Shown here: piece after piece, positions 13,888 to 63,957 of the stretch
Position numbering within the stretch: position 1 is the stretch's first letter
How the letters are laid out: each line of letters starts with the position of its first letter
NCBI GenBank assembly: GCA_945935525.1
Contig: CAMERI010000002.1
Span: 188,482 to 252,481 of the forward strand
Length of the DNA stretch: 64,000 nt
Direction of reading: 5' to 3'
From: an uncultured bacterium
GTDB lineage: Bacteria > Bacillota_I > Bacilli_A > RF39 > UBA660
Translations under genes and position numbers: made by a program
The notes under the pieces: generated by a model
What the model was told of the DNA's origin: nothing
What the model saw: the letters and a program-made list of their open reading frames with translations, nothing else
The model's database searches: none

Positions 13888-13964
13888 GGGCCTGTAGCTC
13901 AGCTGGTTAGAGCGTTCGTCTGATAAGCGAAAGGTCGATGGTTCAAGTCCATTCAGGCCCACCA
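13888..13964 (+). tRNA. tRNA-Ile (anticodon GAT)
   Basis: Cloverleaf with 7-bp acceptor stem GGGCCTG/CAGGCCC, anticodon loop CTGATAA, encoded CCA. Confidence 0.9.
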
Positions 13965-13973
13965 TTAATAAAT

Positions 13974-14049
13974 GGCCCGTTGGTGAAACGGTTAACACAC
14001 ACGCCTTTCACGCGTGCATTTATGGGTTCAAATCCCGTACGGGTCACCA
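13974..14049 (+). tRNA. tRNA-Glu (anticodon TTC)
   Basis: Acceptor stem GGCCCGT/ACGGGTC, anticodon loop CTTTCAC, encoded CCA; close to Bacillus tRNA-Glu. Confidence 0.9.
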
Positions 14050-37278: not shown

Positions 37279-37312
37279 AGAATTTCATTAAATTTGAAAT
37301 TCTTTTTTATTC
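37279..37312. terminator. bidirectional hairpin terminator between the femAB-like gene and the 37307-38908 gene
   Basis: AAGAATTTCA-ttaaat-TTGAAATTCTT followed by TTTT. Confidence 0.5.
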
Positions 37313-38908
37313 TAGTATATATGGGTCAGTATAAATTCCTGTTCCACTTGTTACTTTTATTGTTGGTTTTAATGATATTACCGGATAAATTGCCCCTTCT
37401 CTACCAAATACACTATCAAAGTCTAAACTACCATTATTTCTAACTTGCACCATATTTGCTTGTTTTACCATTAATTTACTTGTAAAGAAAGCTGGTGTCA
37501 TTGTTAAATACCATTCTCCTGTATATAAGTAATAACTATTATTTTGAGTTGCTGAGTTATTAGATGTGTATCTTACCCCTCCTGCGAAAACTCCTTCATC
37601 TCCAGTTAACAAACCTATTGGATACTTAAGCATATTATTACCATATCCTGATGTACCACCACTTGCTTCTGATAAAGTGAATGAATCGTTTACTTGAGGG
37701 CATCTAAATGTAGGTTTTCCTCCTGAAAGTGGAGCCCAAGAATCTGTAGCAACTACTCTTTCAGTAAATCCGTAGAATGTTATATTTGCTGCATATCCTT
37801 TTTTAGTATTTGATGTGTTACCTATTTTATCTCTTGTAGCAAGTGATCTATCATTACAATAAATTACATTATCAACTTTACTTTTATATGTTTCATTACT
37901 TTCAATATTTGTCTTATACCAGTTATCTAGTGTTTGTTTTGCATTACTTTCATTTATGTTTGCATGTTCTTCTTCGTATGATGAACTTCCTGCTGTTCCA
38001 TACATGTAACCCATACCTGCATTATTACTAGATGCGCTTGAGAAAGCTATTGTATCTATTGATGCAGTATTTCCTGTTTGTACGCAATTTCCGTTTACAA
38101 GGCTTCCATCATATCTTAATCTTATACCACCATTTTCATTAGTTCTTATTATTCTCCAGCAATATCCACCAAACAAAGCATAATTATTTGTGACTGCTCC
38201 TCTATAATAGTAAACTCTTCTTCCCTCTTCTGTTTGAATTCCTGAAGTATAATATAATCCTTTTCCATTAGTATCACTTGATATTTTAGCAAAGTCTATT
38301 CCATTAGCAGATGTTACATGTTCACTTGCTTCTGTGTCACTATGAGGAGTATCTGCTTCTACCATTTTGCAATTTAAATTATCTGTATTTGAGTCACATG
38401 TATAATACCATTTACTTACTTCTTCATTTATTTCTTTATATCCAGTTGGTACTATTACATCACCTAATTCATTAAAACTATAGCCACCATATACAGATAA
38501 TTCAACATCTATATTATTTAATGATTTATTATCTATTGATATTTTTATAGTGTTAGTATTTGATTTGCTTGTTAGTGTTCCATATGGTAGTGCATTATCT
38601 TTAAAATATGTTATTTCTATATTATCATCTTCTTTATAAGCTAGTTTGAATTTTGTATCTATATTGTTATTTGAATTTACAACTAATTCTATATTGTTTT
38701 CTCCTGGTTCTACTGTTAACTTTGTTATTTCTGTAGAATCTTTAATAATTTTATAAGTTAACTCTGTTACATACATTTCACTTACTCTATGATTATCTGA
38801 TGTTACAAAGAATCGTGCGTATGTTACAGCTAGAGTTATGCATAAAGTTATAACAATAATAGAAGATAAAATCCATTTTTTTGTTAAAATGCTTACAAAC
38901 AACTTCAT
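37307..38908 (-). CDS. secreted protein with a SipW-cognate-type (TasA/camelysin-class) signal peptide, G/S/T/N-rich
   Basis: N-terminus ...ITLAVTYARFFVTSD resembles the camelysin/TasA signal region (GGTFAYFSD); no other recognisable domain. Confidence 0.4.
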   Translation of the reverse strand: MKLFVSILTKKWILSSIIVITLCITLAVTYARFFVTSDNHRVSEMYVTELTYKIIKDSTEITKLTVEPGENNIELVVNSNNNIDTKFKLAYKEDDNIEITYFKDNALPYGTLTSKSNTNTIKISIDNKSLNNIDVELSVYGGYSFNELGDVIVPTGYKEINEEVSKWYYTCDSNTDNLNCKMVEADTPHSDTEASEHVTSANGIDFAKISSDTNGKGLYYTSGIQTEEGRRVYYYRGAVTNNYALFGGYCWRIIRTNENGGIRLRYDGSLVNGNCVQTGNTASIDTIAFSSASSNNAGMGYMYGTAGSSSYEEEHANINESNAKQTLDNWYKTNIESNETYKSKVDNVIYCNDRSLATRDKIGNTSNTKKGYAANITFYGFTERVVATDSWAPLSGGKPTFRCPQVNDSFTLSEASGGTSGYGNNMLKYPIGLLTGDEGVFAGGVRYTSNNSATQNNSYYLYTGEWYLTMTPAFFTSKLMVKQANMVQVRNNGSLDFDSVFGREGAIYPVISLKPTIKVTSGTGIYTDPYILE

Positions 38909-39270: not shown

Positions 39271-40458
39271 CTAAAAATTAAACATTAACCATTCTGGTTT
39301 ATATATCATTAGTATTCCAATTGTAATCATTATAAGTCCACCTATTAAGTGTGAATACTTTCCATATTTATTTGATATTACTTTTATCTCTAGTGTTTTC
39401 ATAGCAATTATAAATATTATAATATCATCTATCATAAAGAATAAAATATATATTAATGAATAAAGTATTTGTCCAAACTTGCTTACTTCATTTATTGTTA
39501 ATATTTGTGTGAACATTACAGGTAAGCCTAATGAGCAAAGAAGTTCTACGATATTAACTGAAGCTGCTAATAATATTATTCCTAAAAGTGCTAGTATGAA
39601 TGATTTTTCTTTAACAATTTTTTGAATTGATTTTATTATTTTCTTTCTATTTTTTGTATCTACTACTTCACATCCATCATCTTTTTTAAAGAAGAATGAG
39701 TTTACTTGAATTACACCAAATAAAACGGCTACGAATGCAATTGCAACTCTAATATATAGTATTTTATTTAAGAATACTGCTAGATTTAACCAAGATATTA
39801 GGAATAAGAAATATACTAGAGCTGATGATACTAAGAATGTTATGCCTAGAGTCCACATTCTTTTTCTATTTTTCATTCCAAGTAACATTGATATAAGAAA
39901 TAAAAGTATCCACATTGCACAAGGATTGAATCCATCAACTAAGCCAATCACAACTGCTGATAGACCTATTGAAACATCTTTTATTTTTTGTTTACCAAGT
40001 ATAGGTATTTTCACTTCTGATTCTTGATAATCTGTTTTTGTTTCTTCTTCGTTTTTATCTTCAACTATTCCAAGATAAATACCTACTTTATCTTTATAAT
40101 TTATATTTTTATAATATTCTACTGCATTTTTTATTCTTTCTGGAGTTATTTCTTCATCGAATCCTGAGATTACTGTTTCTCCAATTATCAAATATGGAAT
40201 TCCACTAGATGTATCATTTAATATGTCATGCACTTTTGAATATTTTTCTTGATTATCTTTGTTATACCACACTTCATATCTATGTATTTTTATGTAATCA
40301 TTTTTCTTCAAATAAGATTCGAACCATTTTTCCTCTTCTTTACAGTGAGGACATCCATCACCATAAAATAAATAAATATTTAAATCTTTTTCACTTCCAA
40401 ATACTAAGAATGGAATAAATAGAAGTAAAAATAATAATACTTTTAATGTCTTTTTCAT
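39271..40458 (-). CDS. thiol:disulfide interchange protein: extracytoplasmic thioredoxin-like domain fused to a CcdA/DsbD-type membrane domain
   Basis: Signal peptide; GCPHC active site; membrane domain contains the NPCAMW motif. Confidence 0.7.
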   Translation of the reverse strand: MKKTLKVLLFLLLFIPFLVFGSEKDLNIYLFYGDGCPHCKEEEKWFESYLKKNDYIKIHRYEVWYNKDNQEKYSKVHDILNDTSSGIPYLIIGETVISGFDEEITPERIKNAVEYYKNINYKDKVGIYLGIVEDKNEEETKTDYQESEVKIPILGKQKIKDVSIGLSAVVIGLVDGFNPCAMWILLFLISMLLGMKNRKRMWTLGITFLVSSALVYFLFLISWLNLAVFLNKILYIRVAIAFVAVLFGVIQVNSFFFKKDDGCEVVDTKNRKKIIKSIQKIVKEKSFILALLGIILLAASVNIVELLCSLGLPVMFTQILTINEVSKFGQILYSLIYILFFMIDDIIIFIIAMKTLEIKVISNKYGKYSHLIGGLIMITIGILMIYKPEWLMFNF

Positions 40459-40709
40459 AGTTCACCTTCTATAATCCTTATAAATTCTTCCTTTTTGTGT
40501 TCTCCACATAGTCTGGTTATTTCTTTGTCATTTTTGTAAAAGATAAATACTGGAAGAATTTTACCTACGTTAAATTTTTCTATATCATCAAAATCAAAGT
40601 CGTAGTCTTCATATTCTATATCTTCATATTCTTTTTTTAACTCATTTATTATCTTATTCATTATTATGCATGATGGACATCCTAGTGAGTTTATTTTTAC
40701 TATTTTCAT
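40455..40709 (-). CDS. small thioredoxin-family protein
   Basis: CPSC redox motif; 84 aa. Confidence 0.6.
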   Translation of the reverse strand: MKIVKINSLGCPSCIIMNKIINELKKEYEDIEYEDYDFDFDDIEKFNVGKILPVFIFYKNDKEITRLCGEHKKEEFIRIIEGEL

Positions 40710-41508: not shown

Positions 41509-41534
41509 AAAAAAAAGATTGTTGTTACAATCTT
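41509..41534 (-). terminator. Rho-independent terminator ending the vWA/kinase/PurA-like operon
   Basis: AAGATTGT-tgtt-ACAATCTT followed on the minus strand by TTTTTTTT. Confidence 0.55.
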
Positions 41535-42460
41535 CTTCCTTTGTTTGTATTTGGTTTTAATGATAAACTCATTCCTATATCTGTGTTAACATTTGCTATC
41601 TCAGTACTATTTGATAATTCTTGTAATGACTTTGTTACTCCTTCAATTCTAGTAGTAGTTTGCCCTCTTCCTTTCATATCAAGAGCATATACTTCTAAAT
41701 CTTGTTTTTGAATAGCTATAACTCCTAATATTAAATCTATAATTGCCTTTTCTTCTGGTATTCTAACTACATGCTCTGGAGGTAATACCTCTTTCCATGC
41801 ATCAGTAATATCACTTCTAAATTTATTTCCACAGTATCTATTTAGCATTACAAATACATTATCTTTAAATTTCTTATTTAATGCTTCAAATGGTTTATAT
41901 CCTTTTTCTGCTGGAATTCCTATACCTTCTGCTTGACTAAGATTTAAATCTTTATAAGGTGCTTCATCCGCTACAAAGAATACCATTGGATTTGCATCTT
42001 TTCTAAATTCTGTATTGTTTGCTAAGTAATGTGCCATTAATTCATATGATTCTTGTACTTGTCCTCCCCCAGCTCCTTCAAGAACCAACTTTTCTAAATT
42101 ACTATCTATTTCTAATCCTTTAGCAAAGTCATTTATTTGTATTGGATAATCATCTGTGTACGCGTCTCCAACTGCACAAATTGATATATCAAAATCTTTT
42201 AAATAACCTTTTTGTTCTAATTCTCCATAGAACATTGGAAATTTATCATATACTAATCTTGCAAAATTAATATTTGAACCTGTAACATCTAATACTATTA
42301 CAATTGGTGTTTTAGCATCACTTTTTATTATTTTTCCCTTTGGTAACATTTTACTATCTAGTGAAGTACTATTTAACTTGCTTGATGAATAATCGCTTGC
42401 TCCCCAACTATCATAACTACTTCCACTATAAACATCTCTATCATAACTATAACTTCCCAT
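41525..42460 (-). CDS. von Willebrand factor A (vWA) domain protein with a Ser/Tyr/Asp-rich N-terminal tail
   Basis: MIDAS-like VLDVTGS motif; N-terminus MGSYSYDRDVYSGSSYDSWGASDYSSS. Confidence 0.7.
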   Translation of the reverse strand: MGSYSYDRDVYSGSSYDSWGASDYSSSKLNSTSLDSKMLPKGKIIKSDAKTPIVIVLDVTGSNINFARLVYDKFPMFYGELEQKGYLKDFDISICAVGDAYTDDYPIQINDFAKGLEIDSNLEKLVLEGAGGGQVQESYELMAHYLANNTEFRKDANPMVFFVADEAPYKDLNLSQAEGIGIPAEKGYKPFEALNKKFKDNVFVMLNRYCGNKFRSDITDAWKEVLPPEHVVRIPEEKAIIDLILGVIAIQKQDLEVYALDMKGRGQTTTRIEGVTKSLQELSNSTEIANVNTDIGMSLSLKPNTNKGRRL

Positions 42461-42469
42461 ATAATCCTC

Positions 42470-43504
42470 CTAATTTACTTTTCTTTCTAGTGTTTTAAAT
42501 CTTTGATGACCATACACTTCATTTCTTATTTGTATTAGTTCGTTCCATAATGCCCACGCATCATTTTCTTTTTCACTTAGTAATTTTCTAATGAATGACC
42601 TTACTTTCACATCTACATTTACTGGCAAAGCTACCCTATCCATATCACCTCCTAATAAATCTATTGCTAACATACCAACTGCATATATATCCACATTTGG
42701 AATGACTTTTGCATCCTTACCGACATATTTTGGTGAGAATGTCTCATTTACTATTTTATATTTACTCGTTTCTTTATTAGCTTCTTCAATACAAAGTGAA
42801 TAATCAGTAACTGACACATTGTGAGTAGATGGGTCAATTAAAACATTTTCTCTTTTTATATTTCCATGAACGATTTTCTTAGAATGCAAATATCCAACTA
42901 CTGAAAGTAATCTTTCTAATATCCAGCAAATATGTTCACCGCTTAAATTTCCATAATATTTTTTTATTTCTTCTATAGTGAGTCCATCTTTTCTTTCTAC
43001 TATTACGGCATTTCTGCCATTTATTTTTGCTTTTGAAATTAATTTTGGTATTGATAAATGATCTAACTCACTTAGAATTTTTCCTTCTTCTTTTATCAAA
43101 TCATCATCTGATTCATCGCTTGCAATTTTCAATTCTATTAATTGTTCATCAAGTAGTCCCTCATAAACTGTTGCAACGTCTTCACATCTTGATACTTTAT
43201 AAAATTTATATTCTCTTCCTTTTAATTCAAATTCAAATAATGGAGATGCTCTTTTTAAAAGTTCTTTTTCATCTAATATTTGGTATGTTCCATCTTGAAT
43301 TTCTTTTTGTGCGAGAGTGTAGTACTCATTTAATATTTTTGTTGCTTTTTCTGCTAACGCTTTTTCTTCTTCTTTTGCTAAATCTGGATGACATATTTTT
43401 GCATAATTTCTATACACCTTTTTTATTTCATTTTCATTACTACCAAATATCTCAATTGGCCTTTTAGCATTTATAAGTAACTCTGTAATTTCTTTGATAG
43501 ACAT
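42470..43504 (-). CDS. J-domain protein fused to a protein-kinase-like domain (catalytic HRD replaced by HGN, so probably a pseudokinase)
   Basis: J-domain IKKVYRNYAKICHPD (HPD motif); kinase-like lobes with beta3 Lys (IELKIA), alphaC Glu, catalytic loop VHGNIKRENVLID, a TDY segment in place of DFG, and SPKYV. Confidence 0.6.
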   Translation of the reverse strand: MSIKEITELLINAKRPIEIFGSNENEIKKVYRNYAKICHPDLAKEEEKALAEKATKILNEYYTLAQKEIQDGTYQILDEKELLKRASPLFEFELKGREYKFYKVSRCEDVATVYEGLLDEQLIELKIASDESDDDLIKEEGKILSELDHLSIPKLISKAKINGRNAVIVERKDGLTIEEIKKYYGNLSGEHICWILERLLSVVGYLHSKKIVHGNIKRENVLIDPSTHNVSVTDYSLCIEEANKETSKYKIVNETFSPKYVGKDAKVIPNVDIYAVGMLAIDLLGGDMDRVALPVNVDVKVRSFIRKLLSEKENDAWALWNELIQIRNEVYGHQRFKTLERKVN

Positions 43505-44043
43505 TTTATATTTTCACCTCCATCTAATATGATGTCTGCATCTTTCTTTTGTGGTTCAATGTGTGTTCTATATATGCATAAAATTACATCATTAAAGTAT
43601 TTTCTTATTTCTTCTTCACTAATTCCATAACTTTTATCTCTTTTTATTCTTCTTTCAAGAGAAATGTTTTTATCTATTTCAATAAATACTTTTAATGTGT
43701 CTCTTAAATCTTTTAATGCATCTATCGTGTGTAATCCTTCAAATATTACTCTTCCATTTGTTCTAATAATTCTTGATTTGTCTACTCTTTTATTTGCTGA
43801 TAAATCATATGTTGGAATTATTACTTTTTTCTTTTCAATTAAAGTTTTTGAGTCATTTACAAACTCTTCAATATTAAAAGCATTTGGTAAGTCCATTAAG
43901 TATCCTTTTCTAGATAGTGGTATATCTTTTTTATCTTTAAAATACCAGTCTTCCTCAAAATGACTCATATTATATTCTTTCGATAAATAGTTACTTAATG
44001 TAGTTTTGCCTGAGCAAGTCATTCCAGAAATTATAATATTCAT
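43471..44043 (-). CDS. uridine/cytidine-kinase-like P-loop nucleoside kinase
   Basis: Walker A GMTCSGKTT; IPTYDLSANKR resembles the Udk VPIYDFSTHSR motif. Confidence 0.65.
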   Translation of the reverse strand: MNIIISGMTCSGKTTLSNYLSKEYNMSHFEEDWYFKDKKDIPLSRKGYLMDLPNAFNIEEFVNDSKTLIEKKKVIIPTYDLSANKRVDKSRIIRTNGRVIFEGLHTIDALKDLRDTLKVFIEIDKNISLERRIKRDKSYGISEEEIRKYFNDVILCIYRTHIEPQKKDADIILDGGENIKCLSKKLQSYL

Positions 44044-45437
44044 TTTAAAATCCTTTCTAATTTTTGATTTCTATTTGGCCCTACGCCTATTAAAGATATT
44101 TTTGAATTTATTAAGTATTCTATTAGTTCTATAAAATTTATACATTCTTCTGGTAAATCTTCTACTCTTTTAATATCACTTATATCTTGATTCCATCCAT
44201 CAATTGTTATATATAATGGGAGCGTTTTAGCTAAATATTTTCTTAAATCCGGACTATTTCTTTTTATATTTTTAATTATTATTTTATTTCCATCTTTGTA
44301 ATATTCGAATGTTTCTTTAAACTCTTCATCTATTTGTCCTATGTAAATGTATGAGTCACAAATCTTAATTTCTTTAAATGGTGACAATCTATCAAGTGCC
44401 GATAAGAAGAAATAATCATTTTTATTAATAGAGTTAGCATATCTTGTGAGTACTGCATCAAACCATCCATATCTTGGCCTTCCTTGATAATAACTTTCTG
44501 ATTGGTTTTCATCCTTTATTAATGCTTCAACTTTCTTATCATAAGTTGGAAGAACTCCCATACCATGTCTACTTGTTAATGCAGATATAGCACCTATCTT
44601 ATGAATATTAGTATTTAATTCGTTTGCTAAAACTATCCCATTTTGATTTGTTGTATTTAATAATGTTGTGTTTGGCCTTATACCATAATCTCTATCAATT
44701 AATAACCCCTGTGAGCCTTCAAATACAATATCACTGTCAGTGTGAAATGTTCTTATATCTTTTGTAACATTGATGAAACCACTTCTTAGTAAATTCTCAT
44801 AGCATCTAATTATGTATTCTCTATTTTTAGATTCAGTTAAGTGTGATATGTCATCAGTTCTAATGAGTCTGCTTATAAGTTCTTTATTTTGAGAACTCTT
44901 ATAAAATTTTTGAGCATAACCAAATAATTCTTTTAATTTTTCTTTGTATACTTCACTATTGAAGTCACTCATCAATAGTTTAATTCCTGTTTCTTCAAAT
45001 GTTCTTGTTACTTCACTTACACCACTTCCAACAGAACCCCTTCTATTATTCTTACTTTCAATTTCTCTTAAATTATCAATTAATTTGTGATAAGGTGTCA
45101 CGATAGGTACTTCACTATCTACAAATACTCTTTTTAATATTTCTTCTCTTGGTACTTTTGTTTTTTCACTTAAGAAATTACTTTCACTAATTATGTTAAA
45201 GAGATTTACCACTGTGTATTTCGATAGAAAAGTTCTAGTGTCTTCATTTAGAAACGCTGAACCCAGTTGACTAAATTTGTGTGTTAGACCATCATTGACA
45301 ACTGTATGACTTGCTTGACTTCCACCATTATATCTAACGTTTTCTTTTATATCTTTAGTACTTGCTAGATAATCAACTAAAGTCCCTTTTCCTTCGTCAC
45401 CAAATAATGTTCCAGATACTATATAACTATTATTCAT
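44040..45437 (-). CDS. divergent adenylosuccinate-synthetase (PurA)-family ligase
   Basis: PurA motifs GDEGKG(T), QASHT (PurA has NAGHT), GSVGSGVSE (PurA has TGRGIGP), ALDRLS (PurA has KLDVL) and a C-terminal IGVGPNRNQ. Confidence 0.75.
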   Translation of the reverse strand: MNNSYIVSGTLFGDEGKGTLVDYLASTKDIKENVRYNGGSQASHTVVNDGLTHKFSQLGSAFLNEDTRTFLSKYTVVNLFNIISESNFLSEKTKVPREEILKRVFVDSEVPIVTPYHKLIDNLREIESKNNRRGSVGSGVSEVTRTFEETGIKLLMSDFNSEVYKEKLKELFGYAQKFYKSSQNKELISRLIRTDDISHLTESKNREYIIRCYENLLRSGFINVTKDIRTFHTDSDIVFEGSQGLLIDRDYGIRPNTTLLNTTNQNGIVLANELNTNIHKIGAISALTSRHGMGVLPTYDKKVEALIKDENQSESYYQGRPRYGWFDAVLTRYANSINKNDYFFLSALDRLSPFKEIKICDSYIYIGQIDEEFKETFEYYKDGNKIIIKNIKRNSPDLRKYLAKTLPLYITIDGWNQDISDIKRVEDLPEECINFIELIEYLINSKISLIGVGPNRNQKLERILK

Positions 45438-46329
45438 ATAAGAAACTCCTCCATCCTTTTAATGCTTTTTCTAATTTAGGTCCTTGTATTTCATCTTGTA
45501 ACATAAATGTTTTATATCCATATAAATACATAAGTTCTAAATCTTCCATATCAGGTAATGAAATTTCGGACTCTTTATTTAACGATGAAAATAATCTCGA
45601 TGCACATATGGTTGATGGATATTTTTTTATTATTTCTTGTAATGCTTTTAAGACATTTATATCATCTTTACATTCGAGCCATAAATCATCTCTTGCTGCC
45701 ATAGGTTGTATTGCTATATTATTTGATAAAGCAAAGCGTAAACCTTTTAATGATTCTATTTTTGCAACTATTGTTGCATTTGTATTTAAAGAAAGTATTT
45801 CTACTAAATCATCAAATGATTCTAAAAATGATGCCATATAATTATTCATTCCTAATTCTTTTGATTCTTTTATGAATTCTTTATCAAGTTGAGTTAAGTA
45901 TCCTTCTATTATTAAACTTTTTGCTTTTACATTTACTGATTGTCCTTTTCCTACAGCTCTTTCAGGAGGTTCTTCTAAAATAATTTTATTTCCTTTTGTA
46001 TGCATAATATTTGATGTATTCCCACCTCTAAAAATTACTTTTGCTGGATATTCTATATCTATTTTGTGATTTAGTTCTATTGCTTCATAACTAGTATCTG
46101 CCCAACTATTAACTCTTAGTTGTCTTCCCTTTAAATCTATCCATATTTTTTTGTTAAATTTTTCTTCTAATGATTTTAATATTTCAATTATTTTCTTTTC
46201 CTCTAAAAGTTCATTCACTCCTGTATTAAATCTTACTTCACTAATGTATTCACTTGACATCATTTCTTCTACTGCCTTCTTGTTATGAATATGTGGAAGA
46301 GTTCCAATTAATTTTATATCCTTTTTCAT
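45430..46329 (-). CDS. pyruvate-kinase-like TIM-barrel protein lacking the PK C-terminal domain
   Basis: Collinear with the PK barrel motifs: KLIGTLP (TIGP-like), EVRFNTGV (RLNFSHG-like), IDLKGRQLRV (DTKGPEIR-like), AKIESLKGL (KIEN-like), MAARDDLWLEC (MVARGDLG-like). Confidence 0.55.
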   Translation of the reverse strand: MKKDIKLIGTLPHIHNKKAVEEMMSSEYISEVRFNTGVNELLEEKKIIEILKSLEEKFNKKIWIDLKGRQLRVNSWADTSYEAIELNHKIDIEYPAKVIFRGGNTSNIMHTKGNKIILEEPPERAVGKGQSVNVKAKSLIIEGYLTQLDKEFIKESKELGMNNYMASFLESFDDLVEILSLNTNATIVAKIESLKGLRFALSNNIAIQPMAARDDLWLECKDDINVLKALQEIIKKYPSTICASRLFSSLNKESEISLPDMEDLELMYLYGYKTFMLQDEIQGPKLEKALKGWRSFLYE

Positions 46330-46338
46330 ATTTATTCC

Positions 46339-46362
46339 TTTATGTGTATTTTTTACACTTTA
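46339..46362 (-). promoter_or_regulatory. putative NrtR-like operator (copy 2), 15-30 nt upstream of the PK-like gene's start codon
   Basis: TATGTGTATTTTTTACACTT is identical over 20 nt to the copy at 47078-47099; core palindrome GTGTA-n5-TACAC. Confidence 0.4.
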
Positions 46363-46382: not shown

Positions 46383-47057
46383 TTAAAATATGCTTTTCTT
46401 TGTTATTTTTGAATTGAATTTATATAACTTAGCAGGTTTTTTTCCTTTATAAGTTATTGTTTTATTTATATCTTCAATAAGCTTTAAACTTAACATTTTT
46501 TTTCTGAAATTTCTTCTATCAATTTCTTTATTTAATATTGACTCATATACATTGTGTAGTTCTGGTAAAGTAAATTCATAAGGAAATAATGATTTTAGAA
46601 TATCACTAGATATTATATCCTTTTTTAATTCATCAATTCCTCCTTTTAATATTTCATTATGGTCATATGCTAATTTTGGAACTTCATCTAGTGAAAACCA
46701 ATCTGAGTTTGAAGTCTTGTTTGTTTTTGTTATTAGTTCTGCTTTTTTTATGTCTATAACGCCTATAAATAGTATAGCTATCAATCTTTTTATTGGTGAC
46801 CTATCTAATTTATCATAGATGCCGCATTGTCTTAACTCAATATTATCTAAACCAGTTTTTTCTTTTAATTCTCTTTTTGCCCCATCAATTAGTAATTCAT
46901 CATTATATAGTCCACCACCAGGTAATGCCCAATAATCTTTAAATGGTTCATTCGTTCTTCTGATTAATAATACTTTTGTTACTCCCTTATCAATTGTAAA
47001 TATAGTACTTACTACATGAATACCAATGTTTTTATAAAGCGGATTTTTTAATTCCAT
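46383..47057 (-). CDS. NrtR-family regulator (NUDIX domain plus C-terminal winged-helix DNA-binding domain)
   Basis: Nudix box GGLYNDELLIDGAKRELKEKTGL; C-terminal FTLPELHNVYESILNKEIDRRNFRKKM...KPAKLYKF matches the NrtR wHTH pattern. Confidence 0.7.
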   Translation of the reverse strand: MELKNPLYKNIGIHVVSTIFTIDKGVTKVLLIRRTNEPFKDYWALPGGGLYNDELLIDGAKRELKEKTGLDNIELRQCGIYDKLDRSPIKRLIAILFIGVIDIKKAELITKTNKTSNSDWFSLDEVPKLAYDHNEILKGGIDELKKDIISSDILKSLFPYEFTLPELHNVYESILNKEIDRRNFRKKMLSLKLIEDINKTITYKGKKPAKLYKFNSKITKKSIF

Positions 47058-47075: not shown

Positions 47076-47104
47076 ATTATATGTGTATTTTTTACACTTG
47101 TCAA
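47076..47104 (-). promoter_or_regulatory. consensus sigma-A promoter of the NrtR-like gene, with an operator palindrome in the spacer
   Basis: TTGACA, 17-nt spacer, TATAAT on the minus strand; the palindrome GTGTAtttttTACAC at 47083-47097 lies between -35 and -10. Confidence 0.5.
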
Positions 47105-52868: not shown

Positions 52869-52945
52869 TGGTCGGGAAGACAGGATTTGAACCTGCAACC
52901 CCTTGGTCCCAAACCAAATGCTCTACCAAGTTGAGCCACTTCCCG
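52869..52945 (-). tRNA. tRNA-Pro (TGG)
   Basis: Cloverleaf; anticodon loop TTTGGGA; encoded CCA. Confidence 0.85.
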
Positions 52946-52951
52946 ATCTAA

Positions 52952-53028
52952 TGGTGCGCCCAATAGGAGTCGAACCCATAACCTTTTGATCCGTAGTCAA
53001 ATGCTCTATCCAATTGAGCTATGAGCGC
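52952..53028 (-). tRNA. tRNA-Arg (ACG)
   Basis: Anticodon loop CTACGGA; acceptor stem GCGCTCA/TGGGCGC. Confidence 0.85.
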
Positions 53029-53095
53029 GTTTAAATTTCCCTCGGAATCGCTTTGAAATTTTCTGTCTTGCATTTGTATTATTAATTTAACAAAA

Positions 53096-53171
53096 TGGTG
53101 GCTTCAGTTGGAATCGAACCAACGACACCAAGATTTTCAGTCTTGTGCTCTGCCAACTGAGCTATGAAGCC
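53096..53171 (-). tRNA. tRNA-Phe (GAA)
   Basis: Anticodon loop CTGAAAA. Confidence 0.85.
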
Positions 53172-53174
53172 ATT

Positions 53175-53250
53175 TGGCGGTTCCGACGGGACTTGAACCC
53201 GCGATCCCTCGCGTGACAGGCGAGTGTGATAACCACTACACCACGGAACC
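53175..53250 (-). tRNA. tRNA-Asp (GTC)
   Basis: Anticodon loop CTGTCAC; discriminator G. Confidence 0.85.
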
Positions 53251-53253
53251 ATT

Positions 53254-53330
<77 letters not shown>

Positions 53331-53358
53331 ATATTTGAAATTCACTGTACTTATCATA

Positions 53359-53451
53359 TGGCGGAGGAAAAGGGATTCGAACCCCTGCGCCAATTTCTTG
53401 ACCTCCCGGTTTTCAAGACCGGTCCCTTCAACCAGACTTGGGTATTCCTCC
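53359..53451 (-). tRNA. tRNA-Ser (TGA)
   Basis: Long variable arm; anticodon loop CTTGAAA; discriminator G. Confidence 0.85.
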
Positions 53452-53466
53452 AATAATATTTAAAGT

Positions 53467-53555
53467 TGGTGCCCCAGATCGGACTTGAACCGATATGAGC
53501 TTTTACACTCGCAGGATTTTAAGTCCTGTGCGTCTACCTATTCCGCCACTGAGGC
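53467..53555 (-). tRNA. tRNA-Leu (TAA)
   Basis: Long variable arm; anticodon loop CTTAAAA; Leu-type D-arm. Confidence 0.85.
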
Positions 53556-53563
53556 ACATAAAT

Positions 53564-53639
53564 TGGTGTCTCGCTGGGGATTCGAACCCCAGACCCCTTG
53601 ATTAAAAGTCAAGTGCTCTACCGGCTGAGCTAGCGAGAC
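53564..53639 (-). tRNA. tRNA-Lys (TTT)
   Basis: Anticodon loop CTTTTAA. Confidence 0.85.
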
Positions 53640-53658
53640 GTTCTATATGATAAATTTT

Positions 53659-53734
53659 TGGTTGCCTCGGCTGGATTCGAACCAGCGGAATGCAAGAGTC
53701 AAAGTCTTGTGCCTTACCACTTGGCTACGAGGCA
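53659..53734 (-). tRNA. tRNA-Gln (TTG)
   Basis: Anticodon loop CTTTGAC; U1-A72 as usual for Gln. Confidence 0.85.
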
Positions 53735-53744
53735 AAATTACAAG

Positions 53745-53828
53745 TGGTGGAGAGAGGTGGATTCGAACCACCGAACCCGAAGGAACAGATTTACAGTCTG
53801 CCGCGTTTAGCCTCTTCGCTATCTCTCC
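53745..53828 (-). tRNA. tRNA-Tyr (GTA)
   Basis: Long variable arm; anticodon loop CTGTAAA. Confidence 0.85.
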
Positions 53829-53831
53829 AAG

Positions 53832-53907
<76 letters not shown>

Positions 53908-53912
53908 AATTA

Positions 53913-53989
53913 TGGTGGGCGATGAGAGACTCGAACTCCCGACCCCCTGCTTGTAAGGCAGATGCTCTAACCAACTGAGCTAATCGCCC
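53913..53989 (-). tRNA. tRNA-Val (TAC)
   Basis: Anticodon loop CTTACAA; acceptor stem GGGCGAT/ATCGCCC. Confidence 0.85.
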
Positions 53990-57324: not shown

Positions 57325-58044
57325 TTATGTTCTTGCACTTATCATGCCACCATAATATTCAGGTATTTTTCCTTGAATTATTTTCGTACTAATTGGAATT
57401 TTCTTTTTAATCGTTGTTTTTTCTGAGGTGAATGGTAAAATTATTTGAATATTTATTTCAATCTCTAGTAATAGTTCTACTAATGAATTATTTATTCCAT
57501 ATTCTTTTACATTTGTTAATATATTATTTGTAGAACTACCTAGTATCTCTATTTTAAATGGAATTCTGGGTCCTATTCCAATTAAAGCTGGCTTTCCATT
57601 TATTACATTAAATGGAACTTGAAAAATAATATTCTTATTATCAAAAAAATTATTATTCAATTTATTTTTTACTATTTCATCATTACCATTTTCAATTGTT
57701 TTTATATTATTTAACATACTATAATTTACTTTATATAATATTTTATTTGTTAGTGTGTTATTAAAATTTACCCCTACGATTTCGTTACTTTCATTTTTAA
57801 CTATTTCTAACATATTATTTATTTTTTCATCTAGTATAGATTCTTTTATTGATTCATTAATTATTATCGTGGATAGTTCAACGGATTTGTTTTTTGCGTA
57901 TTCTAATAGTATTGTTTTACTTTTTTCAGTAAAAAGTTTTATCAATATGTATGTCAAGATTAGTATTATTACCAATATTAAGATTATCTTATCTTCTTTT
58001 TTTATAAATAACGACTTTCGTAATTTCATTTTTTGTCTAGTCAT
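57325..58044 (-). CDS. yunB: sporulation protein YunB
   Basis: N-terminal TM; C-terminal IGIGPRIPF...EYGINN...IILPFTSEKT...GKIPEYYGG closely parallels B. subtilis YunB. Confidence 0.65.
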   Translation of the reverse strand: MTRQKMKLRKSLFIKKEDKIILILVIILILTYILIKLFTEKSKTILLEYAKNKSVELSTIIINESIKESILDEKINNMLEIVKNESNEIVGVNFNNTLTNKILYKVNYSMLNNIKTIENGNDEIVKNKLNNNFFDNKNIIFQVPFNVINGKPALIGIGPRIPFKIEILGSSTNNILTNVKEYGINNSLVELLLEIEINIQIILPFTSEKTTIKKKIPISTKIIQGKIPEYYGGMISART

Positions 58045-61262: not shown

Positions 61263-62057
61263 TTAATCTTTTAAGAATTTTTCATTTACTATTTTTATAA
61301 AATTATAATCTTTCATTCTTAGAAATTTTATTTTTTTATTTTTTACAAAGCACTCTATACTCTTTACATTTTCATATCTCTTGTTTGTACCATCAAATGT
61401 AATAATTAAGTCTTTTTTGATTGGTTTAATTAATATATTCTTCTTTTCTGGAAGAACTATTGGAGTAAGCAAGTTTCTATATACTTTTGTGTTTAATGGA
61501 GCAATTGGTGTTATTTGTAGTGTGTGTAGTGTGTTATAGATAAGAGCACCATTGAAACTAGTGTTGTATGCGCTACTTCCGACTGAAGTTGAAACTAAAA
61601 TTCCATCTCCTGCAAATGTTTCTAAGAAATATCCATCTATATAAATTTCCATAGTTAAAGCATTTAATTCCATTTGTCTAATAACTATTTCATTTAATGA
61701 GAAGTGTCTTGATACTGAGTCATCAGTGGTTATTTTTGTTTCGAGTGTTCCAATATTATCAACTTTAAAATTATTTTCATTCAAAGATGACACAAAATAT
61801 TCTAAATTATCTGGTTTGATTTCCTGAAGAAAACCTAAAGTACCGGTATTTATCCCAACATAATAGATATTACTATTAAAGTTAGTATTGTTAACCATTC
61901 TTAGAAATGAACCGTCTCCACCTATTGCAATTGCTAAATCATAATTTTCATCAACTAATTCAAAATTATATTTTTCTAATTCTTCTATAAGTTTTAATTT
62001 AATCTTATATGAAACTTCATTTTCATTAGCAAATATTTTTACTTTATTGATTTTTCT
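61263..62057 (-). CDS. nadK: NAD kinase
   Basis: GGDGS/T motif and an NE/D short motif; start probably MRKINKVKIF, just after the nrtR stop. Confidence 0.85.
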   Translation of the reverse strand, partial: RKINKVKIFANENEVSYKIKLKLIEELEKYNFELVDENYDLAIAIGGDGSFLRMVNNTNFNSNIYYVGINTGTLGFLQEIKPDNLEYFVSSLNENNFKVDNIGTLETKITTDDSVSRHFSLNEIVIRQMELNALTMEIYIDGYFLETFAGDGILVSTSVGSSAYNTSFNGALIYNTLHTLQITPIAPLNTKVYRNLLTPIVLPEKKNILIKPIKKDLIITFDGTNKRYENVKSIECFVKNKKIKFLRMKDYNFIKIVNEKFLKD

Positions 62058-62061
62058 CATA

Positions 62062-62880
62062 TTATTTACCTTTGTATTTGAATAGTACACTTGGTCTATG
62101 GCCTTCTCCAGTTTTAATTTTGTCTGTTTTTTCAACTTTATTTGCTATTATTCTTCTGAATGCTGGATCTAATAATTTCTTATTAAGTATTACTTCATAT
62201 ACTTGTTGAAGTTCACCTAATGTAAAATATTCACTCATCATATTAAATACAATATCAGTGTACATAATTTTGTTTTTTAATCTTTCAATTCCACTTACTA
62301 TTACAAGTGGATGGTCAAATGCTAAAGAATCGTTTTTCACTATATCAAATTTATACCTATCAGATGTGCTTTCTTTAAGGGCTTTACTTACTACAAAATT
62401 TAGTGTTTCATTACCATTATCAAGTGTTACATTAAAACTCTTTTCATCTTCAATATAGCTAATGTTAAACCATGATGTGTTTTCATATAAAGAATCGTTT
62501 AGTTTAGTTTTGTCTACTAGGGCCATGTATGAAACACTTAGTACTCTTGTTCTTGGATCTCTATCAATACTATCAAATGTATATAGTTGTTCCATAAATA
62601 TGTTGTGTAGATTTGTTTCACTTGCTAGGACTCTTCTTGCAGCTTCTTCTGTAGTTTCAGTATTCTTTACAAATCCTCCTGGAAGACACCATTTTCCTTT
62701 AAATGGATATTCTTTTCTTTTGACAAGTAAGACACTATAAAACTTATCTTTTAATTTTCTATAATTATTTTGTACTCCGCTTGATACGCTTAATAGTAAA
62801 ACATCACTTGTTACTGATGGATGATCGTATATGCTTGCATCATAGTTTTTTAAAAATTCTTCTTCGCTTTTATATTCCAT
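62062..62880 (-). CDS. nrtR: NrtR-family NUDIX/winged-helix transcriptional regulator of NAD metabolism
   Basis: Nudix box; C-terminal FTLGELQQVYEVILNKKLLDPAFRRII...RPSVLFKY wHTH signature; embedded in the nadD-pncC-nrtR-nadK cluster. Confidence 0.8.
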   Translation of the reverse strand: MEYKSEEEFLKNYDASIYDHPSVTSDVLLLSVSSGVQNNYRKLKDKFYSVLLVKRKEYPFKGKWCLPGGFVKNTETTEEAARRVLASETNLHNIFMEQLYTFDSIDRDPRTRVLSVSYMALVDKTKLNDSLYENTSWFNISYIEDEKSFNVTLDNGNETLNFVVSKALKESTSDRYKFDIVKNDSLAFDHPLVIVSGIERLKNKIMYTDIVFNMMSEYFTLGELQQVYEVILNKKLLDPAFRRIIANKVEKTDKIKTGEGHRPSVLFKYKGK

Positions 62881-62889
62881 ATTGCCTCC

Positions 62890-63360
62890 TTATAATATTT
62901 CTATTAACTTATCTAGTATATCATTTACTATTAGTTCTTTTACCTCTTTACGTGGTTTATTTGGAACTGTTATTTTCATATCAGTGTGTGTACTATTCTT
63001 ACTATTGAATATACTTACAAATACTTCATTATCATTTCCGCTTAAATTATTTTCATCAACTCTATTTATCTTTCCAGTTATGCCAACTCCATAAGTACTT
63101 CCTGCGAACTTACTTATATTTTCACTCATTTCGTGAGCAGTTTCAATGCTATAAACAGAATATTTTTCAATAACTTTAGGGTCAACTCCCATTTTAATTT
63201 TATATTCATTTGAATAAGTAACTGCTGAAAACTTTAGAGCTTCACTTGAACCATCAACGCATGTAATAGTACTTGCAAAATATCCTCCAGTACAACTTTC
63301 CATTGATGCAATTGTTTCTTTTTTATCTATTAATTTTTTTACTACTTCTTTTTCTTTCAT
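62890..63360 (-). CDS. pncC: CinA C-terminal-domain protein / NMN amidohydrolase
   Basis: ESCTGG motif; 156 aa. Confidence 0.75.
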   Translation of the reverse strand: MKEKEVVKKLIDKKETIASMESCTGGYFASTITCVDGSSEALKFSAVTYSNEYKIKMGVDPKVIEKYSVYSIETAHEMSENISKFAGSTYGVGITGKINRVDENNLSGNDNEVFVSIFNSKNSTHTDMKITVPNKPRKEVKELIVNDILDKLIEIL

Positions 63361-63396
63361 AATACCTCTTTTATATAAATTGATTATAACACATTA

Positions 63397-63957
63397 TTAA
63401 CTAACATATAAATTATTTCTTTTAATATAGTCATAAACTTTTAAATCAATATACTTTAATACATCTTTGTTATTATTTAAGATCATGTTTCTTACAATAG
63501 TAGATGATGTCTCTTTACTTGATATTTTGTTTTTGACTATAAAGTTATAATTTTCATACTTCTTATAAATAGATTCTTCTATATCATTTCTTCTAATAAC
63601 TATTATATTGTATTTTAGAATCTCTGATACATTTTTCCATTTATCAAAATCTTTTAGTAAATCATCTCCAATAACTAGATAAATCTTATCATTTTTGTAT
63701 TCATTTTGAATATTTCTTAGTACTTGATATGTAAATTCATAATTATTATTTTTATTATCAATTACTATGTCTTTCGTTTCATATAGTTTTAACATATTAA
63801 TTCTATCTTTAATACTAATTAGATTATTTTTATTCCAGTAACTCATTGTTGGAACTATTATGACTTTATCTACATATTCTTTAAGAATCTTTTTAACTAC
63901 TTTTATGTGACCTTTATGAACTGGATTGAAACTACCTACATAAACAGCTATTTTCAT
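63397..63957 (-). CDS. nadD: nicotinate-nucleotide adenylyltransferase
   Basis: N-terminal GSFNPVHKGH (H/T)xGH nucleotidyltransferase motif. Confidence 0.9.
   Translation of the reverse strand: MKIAVYVGSFNPVHKGHIKVVKKILKEYVDKVIIVPTMSYWNKNNLISIKDRINMLKLYETKDIVIDNKNNNYEFTYQVLRNIQNEYKNDKIYLVIGDDLLKDFDKWKNVSEILKYNIIVIRRNDIEESIYKKYENYNFIVKNKISSKETSSTIVRNMILNNNKDVLKYIDLKVYDYIKRNNLYVS

Follow-up and report, generated by a model that had tools for sequence, protein, structure and literature searches.

A conserved J-domain-pseudokinase fusion paired with a vWA protein gene in a putative NrtR-linked cassette of bacteria and phages

A stretch of 64,000 nucleotides (the window) was analysed from an uncultured bacterium of the Bacilli lineage UBA660 (assembly GCA_945935525.1, contig CAMERI010000002.1, positions 188,482 to 252,481 of the forward strand). 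At its centre of interest is a gene encoding a J-domain fused to a kinase-like domain, hereafter the J-pseudokinase. A reading made from the letters alone had already pointed to this fusion; that the gene lies on the minus strand as the fourth of five genes behind an NrtR gene, and that its module is widespread, NAD-linked and carried by phages, goes beyond that reading. The five genes form a tightly packed minus-strand cassette, in the order pyruvate-kinase (PK)-barrel protein, adenylosuccinate-synthetase (AdSS)-like protein, uridine-kinase/PRK-like (Udk-like) protein, J-pseudokinase and vWA protein. The first three junctions are overlaps of 8, 4 and 34 nt, followed by a 9-nt gap. The genes and the domains of the J-pseudokinase are as follows.

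45430..46329, minus strand: pyruvate-kinase-barrel-only protein, 299 aa (52 bits against an NCBIfam equivalog cut-off of 432)
44040..45437, minus strand: adenylosuccinate-synthetase-like protein, 465 aa (210 bits against an NCBIfam equivalog cut-off of 402)
43471..44043, minus strand: uridine-kinase/PRK-like P-loop kinase, 190 aa (103 bits against an NCBIfam equivalog cut-off of 180)
42470..43504, minus strand: J-domain-pseudokinase gene, ATG start, 344 aa (translation of the open reading frame, ORF)
43280..43504, minus strand: J-domain, aa 1-75 (Pfam, PDB sequence matches, AF2 model)
43382-43390, minus strand: HPD, aa 39-41 (translation)
42512..43237, minus strand: kinase-like domain, aa 90-331 (StkP alignment, AF2 model, Foldseek)
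42860-42868, minus strand: HGN at the HRD position, aa 213-215 (translation)
42797-42805, minus strand: D234-Y-S at the DFG position (translation)
41525..42460, minus strand: vWA-domain partner, 311 aa, starting 9 nt past the J-pseudokinase stop

The N-terminal part of the J-pseudokinase has the properties of a J-domain protein, namely a profile-recognisable J-domain fold of about 70 aa with HPD in the loop between helices II and III. Pfam DnaJ matches aa 22-66 with 29.0 bits, above its gathering score of 27.8, and H39-P40-D41 are in place, in line with what had been proposed for this region. When residues 1-87 alone were compared with PDB sequences, 37 matches with E<=1 were found, almost exclusively J-domains, with DNAJA3 on top (E 0.003). 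Helix II is basic (K28, K29, R32, K36). A match of Pfam fvmX5 to the same region (E 0.011) was sub-threshold and was discarded.

The remainder of the protein was assigned to the Ser/Thr-kinase-like fold, as had been suggested, by Pfam Pkinase at aa 119-288 (E 1.9e-18, 67 bits against a gathering score of 31.7) and by structure prediction. The AlphaFold2 (AF2) model, based on 28 homologues, has a pLDDT of 92 and a pTM of 0.82, and consists of a helical bundle at the N-terminus, where HPD separates helices 24-38 and 45-71, and of a bilobal kinase fold after it. Foldseek against the PDB returned a Mycobacterium tuberculosis PknA/PknB kinase (6b2q) as top match (E 7e-12, probability 1.00), and ranks 2-4 were taken by the human chimera of a J-domain and PKA, DNAJB1-PRKACA (4wb7, 8fe5), with a match spanning the whole length. 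The C-terminus extends about 13 residues past the last modelled helix, and neither Pfam nor the AF2 model gives an additional domain.

Within this fold, part of the signature of an active Hanks-type kinase is present. The β3 lysine (K126), the αC glutamate (E140), the catalytic-loop asparagine (N220) and the DFG aspartate (D234) are retained in the translation, the first two as predicted from the sequence. The HRD aspartate and GxGxxG are missing. In a phmmer alignment with the pneumococcal kinase StkP, IVHGNIKRENVLID pairs with IVHRDLKPQNILLT and VTDYSL pairs with VTDFGI; HGN therefore occupies the HRD position, with Asn in place of the catalytic Asp, and D234-Y-S occupies the DFG position. 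The glycine-rich loop, earlier described as degenerate, is gone, as the β1-β2 stretch SRCEDVATVY contains no Gly. The gene is thus confirmed to be real and to encode a J-domain of the Hsp70-recruiting type fused to a kinase fold minus its catalytic Asp.

A search of 5.8 billion proteins yielded 67 full-length homologues of about 345 aa each, 42-99% identical and mainly from uncultured Bacilli. All 67 have HGN, and H213, G214, N215, K217 and HPD are near-invariant in their alignment. A profile search of 1.84 billion cluster representatives identified 359 clusters with E<1e-30, mostly of 345-390 aa and matching end to end. Members are named "protein kinase family protein", "serine/threonine protein kinase" or "hypothetical protein" in the databases. 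The idea that the gene is a decayed kinase gene, or that HRD was turned into HGN by a sequencing error, has nothing but the motif change itself in its favour, and is refuted: the ORF is unbroken, a 99%-identical copy stands for a cluster with 77 members from 4 contigs, HGN or HGA is shared by hundreds of relatives, gene order is preserved and the model is of high confidence. Its probability is close to nil.

Motif states were counted in 228 retrieved single-module relatives (300-460 aa) aligned to the family profile. The HRD Asp position holds Asn in 132, Ala in 65, Ser in 10, Gly in 8 and Asp in just 3, so that the reading as a pseudokinase or atypical kinase stands. Two findings had been named in advance as counting against that reading, a predicted structure without a kinase fold and homologues uniformly carrying HRD; the model has the fold, and among the 228 relatives only these three have Asp. 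The β3 position is Lys in 213 relatives and the αC position Glu in 223, while the DFG position is Asp in 189 and Gly in 33. At the catalytic-loop Asn position, Asn (102) and His (115) are about equally frequent. HPD is exact in 163. The glycine loop has one Gly at most, most relatives have E, L, I or T instead of the HRDxK lysine, and the DnaJ profile was matched by 11 of 20 diverse relatives. HGN is a trait of the family, which is predicted to be a conserved pseudokinase or at most a very unconventional enzyme. As far as the alignment tells, the signature of a nucleotide pocket is maintained in the family, whereas the catalytic base and the glycine loop have been given up, as has, in most members, the lysine of HRDxK.

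These same counts bear on whether the domain might be an atypical active kinase, phosphorylating or otherwise nucleotidylating the Ser/Tyr-rich N-terminal tail of the vWA protein in spite of HGN, with a J-domain that aids only folding or turnover. The strong conservation of the β3 Lys, αC Glu, catalytic-loop Asn/His and DFG Asp would fit such an enzyme, as would the SAPEV (APE-like) segment in distant members, the DxY/WxxG segment found family-wide and the invariant, predicted disordered vWA N-terminus MGxxSYDRDVYSSSS as a substrate. Kinase-fold enzymes with altered catalytic sites do exist, such as SelO and SidJ, and the pseudokinase HER3 (ErbB3), with HRN and a partner-binding role, keeps weak activity. 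However, the catalytic Asp is missing in 225/228 relatives, often in favour of Ala, Ser or Gly, which are chemically no substitute; the HRDxK lysine is mostly lost, 33 relatives have Gly for the DFG Asp, there is no glycine loop, and the bacterial loci inspected contain no linked gene for PP2C or another phosphatase. An active kinase is therefore considered improbable. HER3-type pseudokinases share the change of Asp to Asn and the kept β3 Lys, catalytic-loop Asn and DFG Asp with the present protein, which differs from HER3 in that Gly replaces the Arg of HRD as well, there is no glycine loop, 65/228 relatives have Ala, and the protein is bacterial or phage-borne and fused to a J-domain.

The adjacent 311-aa protein is a genuine vWA domain, as had been assumed, even though it matches no Pfam model; it has a MIDAS-like D58-V-T-G-S62. 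Its identity across Bacilli and Clostridia is 54-76%, far above the conservation of the pseudokinase. Proteins of the type found in the window have an invariant N-terminus MGxxSYDRDVY and end in KGRRL. Across phyla, the N-terminus follows MGGG-[YFH]-Y-[SD]-x-D-[VI] and the protein ends in ...[KR]RL, with both ends predicted to be disordered; this conservation, in the vWA genes of loci L001-L104, spans at least 10 phyla as well as phages. Conservation of this kind at the ends of a scaffold protein suggests a part in docking, processing or covalent modification.

The linkage of the two genes was assessed in 80 loci, obtained by scanning one genome per species with distant family members as queries and searching the ORFs with the cassette proteins. 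The hosts include Leptospiraceae, Ca. Uabimicrobium, lineages of the candidate phyla radiation (CPR), Omnitrophota, Geobacter, Syntrophaceae, Clostridia, Acidobacteria, Myxococcota and Gammaproteobacteria. A vWA gene lies immediately downstream on the same strand in at least 62 of the 75 evaluable loci and anywhere in the locus in 69/80. Being a conserved partner, it supports the earlier suggestion that the kinase-like domain binds the vWA protein. Next in frequency are the AdSS-like gene (50/80 loci), the PK-barrel-like gene (24/80), a NadD-type adenylyltransferase gene just upstream (19/80), the Udk-like gene (9/80) and NrtR (5/80). The identical five genes in the same order also occur in other Bacilli and Clostridia amid unrelated housekeeping flanks, and the flanking genes encode RNase Y, enolase, ribosomal proteins and RuvX, with no defence islands. 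A plasmid search gave generic kinase matches only.

In some relatives the J-domain is swapped for an active Ser/Thr kinase, NACHT, CHAT or a fused NMNAT. HGN modules with alternative domains were seen in P0224, P0227, P0232, P0235, P0268, P0209, P0301 and P0192; of these, P0301 has an NMNAT domain fused directly to the pseudokinase module and P0192 a long extra N-terminal region ahead of its J-domain. With an active Ser/Thr kinase in place of the J-domain, the protein becomes a tandem kinase-pseudokinase of the Myxococcota type. Some HGN modules have an added C-terminal retropepsin. A Pfam TCAD9 match on P0203 (E 0.007) was sub-threshold and discarded. From these architectures, the pseudokinase looks like a constant adaptor, with the N-terminal domain as a swappable output. 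Since the domain is constant in the family, adjoins a vWA gene, has lost catalytic residues and has a swappable N-terminal partner, it is best understood as a putative adaptor that docks the vWA protein.

The three enzymes encoded upstream in the cassette are diverged paralogues. The AdSS-like protein retains the P-loop, H41, Q224 and D333, but its contacts to the IMP phosphate and aspartate are altered (T128/T129 to S/V, R131 to S, T300/T301 to Y/Y, K331 to A). An assignment as ordinary purA was rejected as unproven, as the score is half the equivalog cut-off and these contacts differ. In the closest syntenic relative (L002, 6709-7116), a 135-aa gene with a weak zinc-ribbon match separates nrtR from the PK-barrel gene; the window lacks this gene.

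Upstream of the cassette, a gene for a NrtR-like repressor and two operator-like palindromes were found. Rfam identified tRNAs only in the window, and no riboswitch ahead of the operon.

47076..47104, minus strand: promoter of the nrtR-like gene, TTGACA-17-TATAAT, 12/12 matches
47083-47097, minus strand: operator-like copy 1, GTGTAAAAAATACAC, inside the promoter spacer
46383..47057, minus strand: NrtR-like repressor gene (Nudix plus NrtR winged helix), 224 aa (NrtR_WHD 1.6e-21, NUDIX 5.8e-16)
46344..46358, minus strand: operator-like copy 2, exact GTGTA-N5-TACAC, past the nrtR stop and ahead of the ribosome-binding site of the first cassette gene

With 133 bits to NCBIfam NF050029 against a cut-off of 400, the NrtR-like protein is a diverged paralogue. 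The exact palindrome GTGTAAAAAATACAC has two copies in the window and fits the NrtR operator core GT-N7-AC (Rodionov et al., PMC2330246). In 88 non-redundant loci (1.32 Mb), 18 exact GTGTA-N5-TACAC sites were counted, compared to 0.8 in composition-preserving shuffles (maximum 3), and other palindromes of equal base composition occur at most three times each in the same 1.32 Mb. Most sites closely precede genes of the cluster, the hosts being Bacilli, Clostridia, Acidobacteria, CPR and Myxococcota, and such sites are also present in loci without nrtR in the stretch examined. In a Saccharibacteria locus (L023), the identical 15-mer GTGTACTATTGACAC, one mismatch from the palindrome, occurs at 5627, 8229 and 14112, that is ahead of NadE-NadD, ahead of the Udk-like gene and past the AdSS-like gene; these repeats look like multiple operators within a single cluster.

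The neighbouring genes point to NAD metabolism as well. An nrtR gene adjoins the cluster in the window, L002, L012, L017, L023, L034, L062 and L077. The large upstream ORFs encode fusions of glutamine-dependent NAD synthetase (NadE) with NadD, and NadE-NadD or NadD is found directly upstream in 19 loci; in L011, NadD adjoins the pseudokinase-vWA pair. The gene order in L012 is NrtR-NAMPT-vWA-AdSS-pseudokinase, and L103 has genes for Prs-like, NAMPT-like, vWA, AdSS-like and pseudokinase proteins with NADAR nearby. The window itself contains a second NAD operon on the minus strand (61263-63957) with its own NrtR paralogue; its promoter lies beyond the window end.

63397-63957, minus strand: NadD-like adenylyltransferase
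62890-63360, minus strand: CinA/PncC domain
62062-62880, minus strand: second NrtR-like protein
61263-62135, minus strand: NAD kinase

Since this operon carries NrtR, the genome has two NrtR paralogues, one of them beside the pseudokinase cassette. As in the NrtR regulons described (PMC2330246), a Nudix plus winged-helix gene is nearby and GT-N7-AC palindromes lie upstream. Given the adjacency of nrtR, the operator-like sites and the NAD genes, the operon is best read as part of an NrtR regulon, one that would answer NAD breakdown. According to Rodionov et al. (PMC2330246), ADP-ribose frees NrtR from DNA; as NrtR regulators leave the DNA when ADP-ribose builds up, the operon would be on during NAD breakdown. 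The same study (2008) includes an NrtR-regulated pair nrtX-nrtY with function unassigned there, which might be the present pair; a protein search bearing on this gave only unnamed metagenomic proteins.

This context raises another possibility, that the kinase-like domain serves to sense or process a small molecule, namely a nucleotide derived from NAD such as ADP-ribose, NAD or NMN, and directly controls the neighbouring enzymes, with a vestigial J-domain. Pocket residues conserved without the catalytic ones, the NMNAT fusion in P0301 and the recurrent NAD genes are all consistent with it. Against a vestigial J-domain stands the exact HPD in 163/228 relatives and its retention from CPR to mycobacteriophages, which argues for selection on the Hsp70 contact, making this explanation rather unlikely.

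Phage copies were retrieved by tblastn with the vWA protein, which matched 210 phage records, including 201 Mycobacterium phages and six Vibrio phages; scans of viral contigs with the pseudokinase alignment and with P0287 gave nothing, and phage copies surfaced only via the vWA protein. The Mycobacterium phages among the matches listed are about 154 kb long, and HyRo is classified as Bixzunavirus. In HyRo (NC_028869.1, 148011-152571), gp243 is a HAD phosphatase, gp245 a "kinase", gp246 vWA-like and gp248 AdSS-like, with PHROGs entries phrog_3043 "kinase", phrog_2971 (unknown function) and phrog_1211. Gp246 has the form MGSGAWDS...TDRL. Gp245 contains HPD, VHGAITPDN and LIDW, and hhalign aligns it to the family profile with a probability of 100% (E 1e-55). 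The phage AdSS-like gene is annotated as '2-aminooxy adenylosuccinate synthetase', a PurZ-style annotation probably inherited from the PHROG name. The Vibrio phage PP083314.1 has NADAR, an uncharacterised gene, vWA-like and AdSS-like genes; the pseudokinase is missing.

Presence in phages, together with a kinase-fold gene next to a vWA gene, might also indicate a sensor-adaptor of an anti-phage or conflict system related to TerY-P, with the J-domain as one of several interchangeable outputs. The TerY-P triad comprises a TerY-like vWA protein, a PP2C phosphatase and a Ser/Thr kinase that carries a zinc ribbon or OB fold (PMC11090510, citing Anantharaman 2012). The likeness consists of kinase-fold and MIDAS-type vWA genes side by side, thought to act as a switch in TerY-P, and the swap of the N-terminal domain to NACHT, CHAT or an active kinase and the C-terminal retropepsin are typical of conflict systems. 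NrtR-type regulators and vWA chaperones have moreover been predicted in anti-ADP-ribosylation systems (PMC9503650), and the PADLOC kinase models PD-T4-6, MkoA, mad6 and PglW match the J-pseudokinase. These matches are, however, confined to the generic kinase core (aa ~100-316 at most), so that they were not accepted, and the other four cassette genes had no match above noise to a defence model. Compared to TerY-P, an adjacent MIDAS-motif vWA gene is found, but not a PP2C or an active kinase with a zinc ribbon or OB fold. PP2C was seen neither in the window cassette nor in L001-L010, with L014-L093 not screened for it. Instead, a degenerate kinase with a J-domain takes the place of the C-terminal zinc ribbon or OB fold, the vWA protein has no match in Pfam, and the linkage is to NAD genes rather than to restriction or Ter genes. 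A vWA protein 54-76% identical across Bacilli and Clostridia is much too conserved for a fast-evolving defence gene, and the housekeeping flanks and the occurrence in reduced CPR genomes, beside NAD biosynthesis genes, also argue against a conflict system. This explanation is regarded as unlikely, with a modest chance of being right.

J-domain proteins choose Hsp70 targets, and pseudokinases turn an enzyme fold into a docking switch. The reading preferred here, a tentative one held with slightly less than even confidence, is that the J-pseudokinase is a specialised DnaK co-chaperone or adaptor whose dead kinase domain docks the vWA partner, within an NrtR-controlled NAD-stress operon. From domain identity and gene linkage, we infer that the J-domain with its HPD would switch on the DnaK ATPase, while the vWA protein, whose gene begins 9 nt further on, would be docked by the HGN pseudokinase domain. 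DnaK might thereby reach the vWA protein or its cargo; the AdSS-like enzyme is the most constant third partner. Because the pocket residues K126, E140, N220 and D234 are conserved, the domain may still bind a nucleotide, which might gate docking. The pseudokinase-vWA pair would then form the core, for regulation or assembly, of an operon that an NrtR-type regulator represses and ADP-ribose induces, and that might help to refill NAD or adenylate pools.

The closest working model for the pair is that of MoxR-vWA, in which a vWA adaptor hands a client to an ATP-driven chaperone. The difference is that the chaperone would here be Hsp70, contacted via the J-domain and taking the place of the MoxR ATPase in a similar client presentation. 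Neither the window nor the inspected loci L001-L010, L012, L103 and L104 have a MoxR-type ATPase gene beside the vWA gene, and an AAA-family ATPase (Pfam AAA, not classified as MoxR) adjoins the pair only in L094. There, on a 139-kb IMG/VR contig (5706-8904), a weak TelA-like protein and the AAA ATPase lie immediately ahead of the J-pseudokinase, vWA, PK-like and AdSS-like genes. This arrangement is a possible bridge to Ter-type and AAA-vWA systems.

The protein itself is a J-protein of class C, with a pseudokinase as its putative client domain. Other members of this class (type III) likewise combine an N-terminal J-domain, HPD and a basic helix II with an unrelated, putative client-selecting domain; the difference is that this client-binding domain has a kinase fold here, with Hsp70 stimulation predicted from the J-domain motifs. 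No characterised bacterial class C J-protein with a kinase-fold client domain was found in the literature, nor any characterised bacterial J-domain/kinase fusion, in agreement with the sequence-only reading. In GAK/auxilin-2 and the DNAJB1-PRKACA chimera, a J-domain and a kinase fold also share one chain, but those kinases are active and have no vWA partner. The J-domain of GAK is C-terminal and accompanied by PTEN-like and clathrin-binding parts, and the chimera is an oncogenic somatic accident. The resemblance to these eukaryotic proteins is analogy, not common descent.

Several observations weigh against an NAD-stress co-chaperone. About half of the 80 loci have only J-vWA or J-vWA-AdSS, with no NAD gene within 9 kb on each side. 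Strict HPD is absent in about one fifth of the relatives possessing the N-terminal region, and J-less versions exist (P0395 in L103; Myxococcota forms). The kept K, E, N/H and D are compatible with residual or unconventional catalysis, and the AdSS-like, PK-like and Udk-like proteins are all far below the NCBIfam equivalog cut-offs. Finally, some phages (the Vibrio phage and some IMG/VR contigs) have vWA and AdSS-like genes without the pseudokinase, which makes the latter accessory rather than core; by gene content, it appears often to accompany a vWA/AdSS-like core that can do without it.

Bacterial immunity makes central use of NAD depletion, and phages respond by rebuilding NAD. A wider and more doubtful proposal is that the J-pseudokinase, vWA and AdSS-like triad, together with the PK-barrel and Udk-like proteins, forms an unrecognised, ADP-ribose-induced pathway for rebuilding NAD or adenylate in more than 10 bacterial phyla and large phages. 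The prs-like and NAMPT-like genes beside the triad in L103, and NAMPT in L012, recall the phage NAD reconstitution pathway NARP1 (10.1101/2024.02.11.579819). The difference from both NARP1 and the NrtR regulons is that the pseudokinase, vWA, AdSS-like and PK-like proteins are not among their described components. In a bolder version, the AdSS-like enzyme might act on the N-terminal MGGG or C-terminal KRL of the vWA protein, giving a protein-nucleotide conjugate. If true, the pathway would be a further phage route for NAD restoration besides NARP1-3, in which a dead-kinase Hsp70 co-chaperone controls a vWA scaffold; it would also link DnaK protein quality control to NAD stress and give a role to three diverged housekeeping-like enzymes.

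The surrounding system is without a described counterpart. Neither the J-pseudokinase architecture nor the triad is mentioned in Kaur 2020, Iyer 2022, the NARP1 and NARP3 papers, the phage RyR-domain preprint, the 2026 oral-microbiome kinase survey or the 2025 mycobacteriophage annotation paper. A bacterial and phage family uniting a J-domain and a pseudokinase appears to be previously undescribed; it is large and very widespread. The presence of the triad in Bixzunavirus phages growing on M. smegmatis makes the question accessible to direct genetics.

Among the other features of the window, three genes lie near the cassette: that of a 533-aa protein that matches no Pfam model and has a hydrophobic segment at the N-terminus (37307-38908, minus strand), a thioredoxin-like gene by it (40455-40709) and that of a 395-aa membrane protein with weak Pfam matches only, one of them thioredoxin-like (39271-40458). 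A cluster of 12 tRNAs (52869-53989, minus strand: Pro, Arg, Phe, Asp, Met, Ser, Leu, Lys, Gln, Tyr, Thr, Val) explains a local rise of the G+C content to 0.36, and a tRNA-Ile/tRNA-Glu pair is found at 13888-14049 on the plus strand. The sporulation gene YunB is present at 57325-58044, and SpoVIF in the syntenic relative L002 (14292-14528), suggesting that this 27%-G+C uncultured Bacilli lineage is probably a spore-former.

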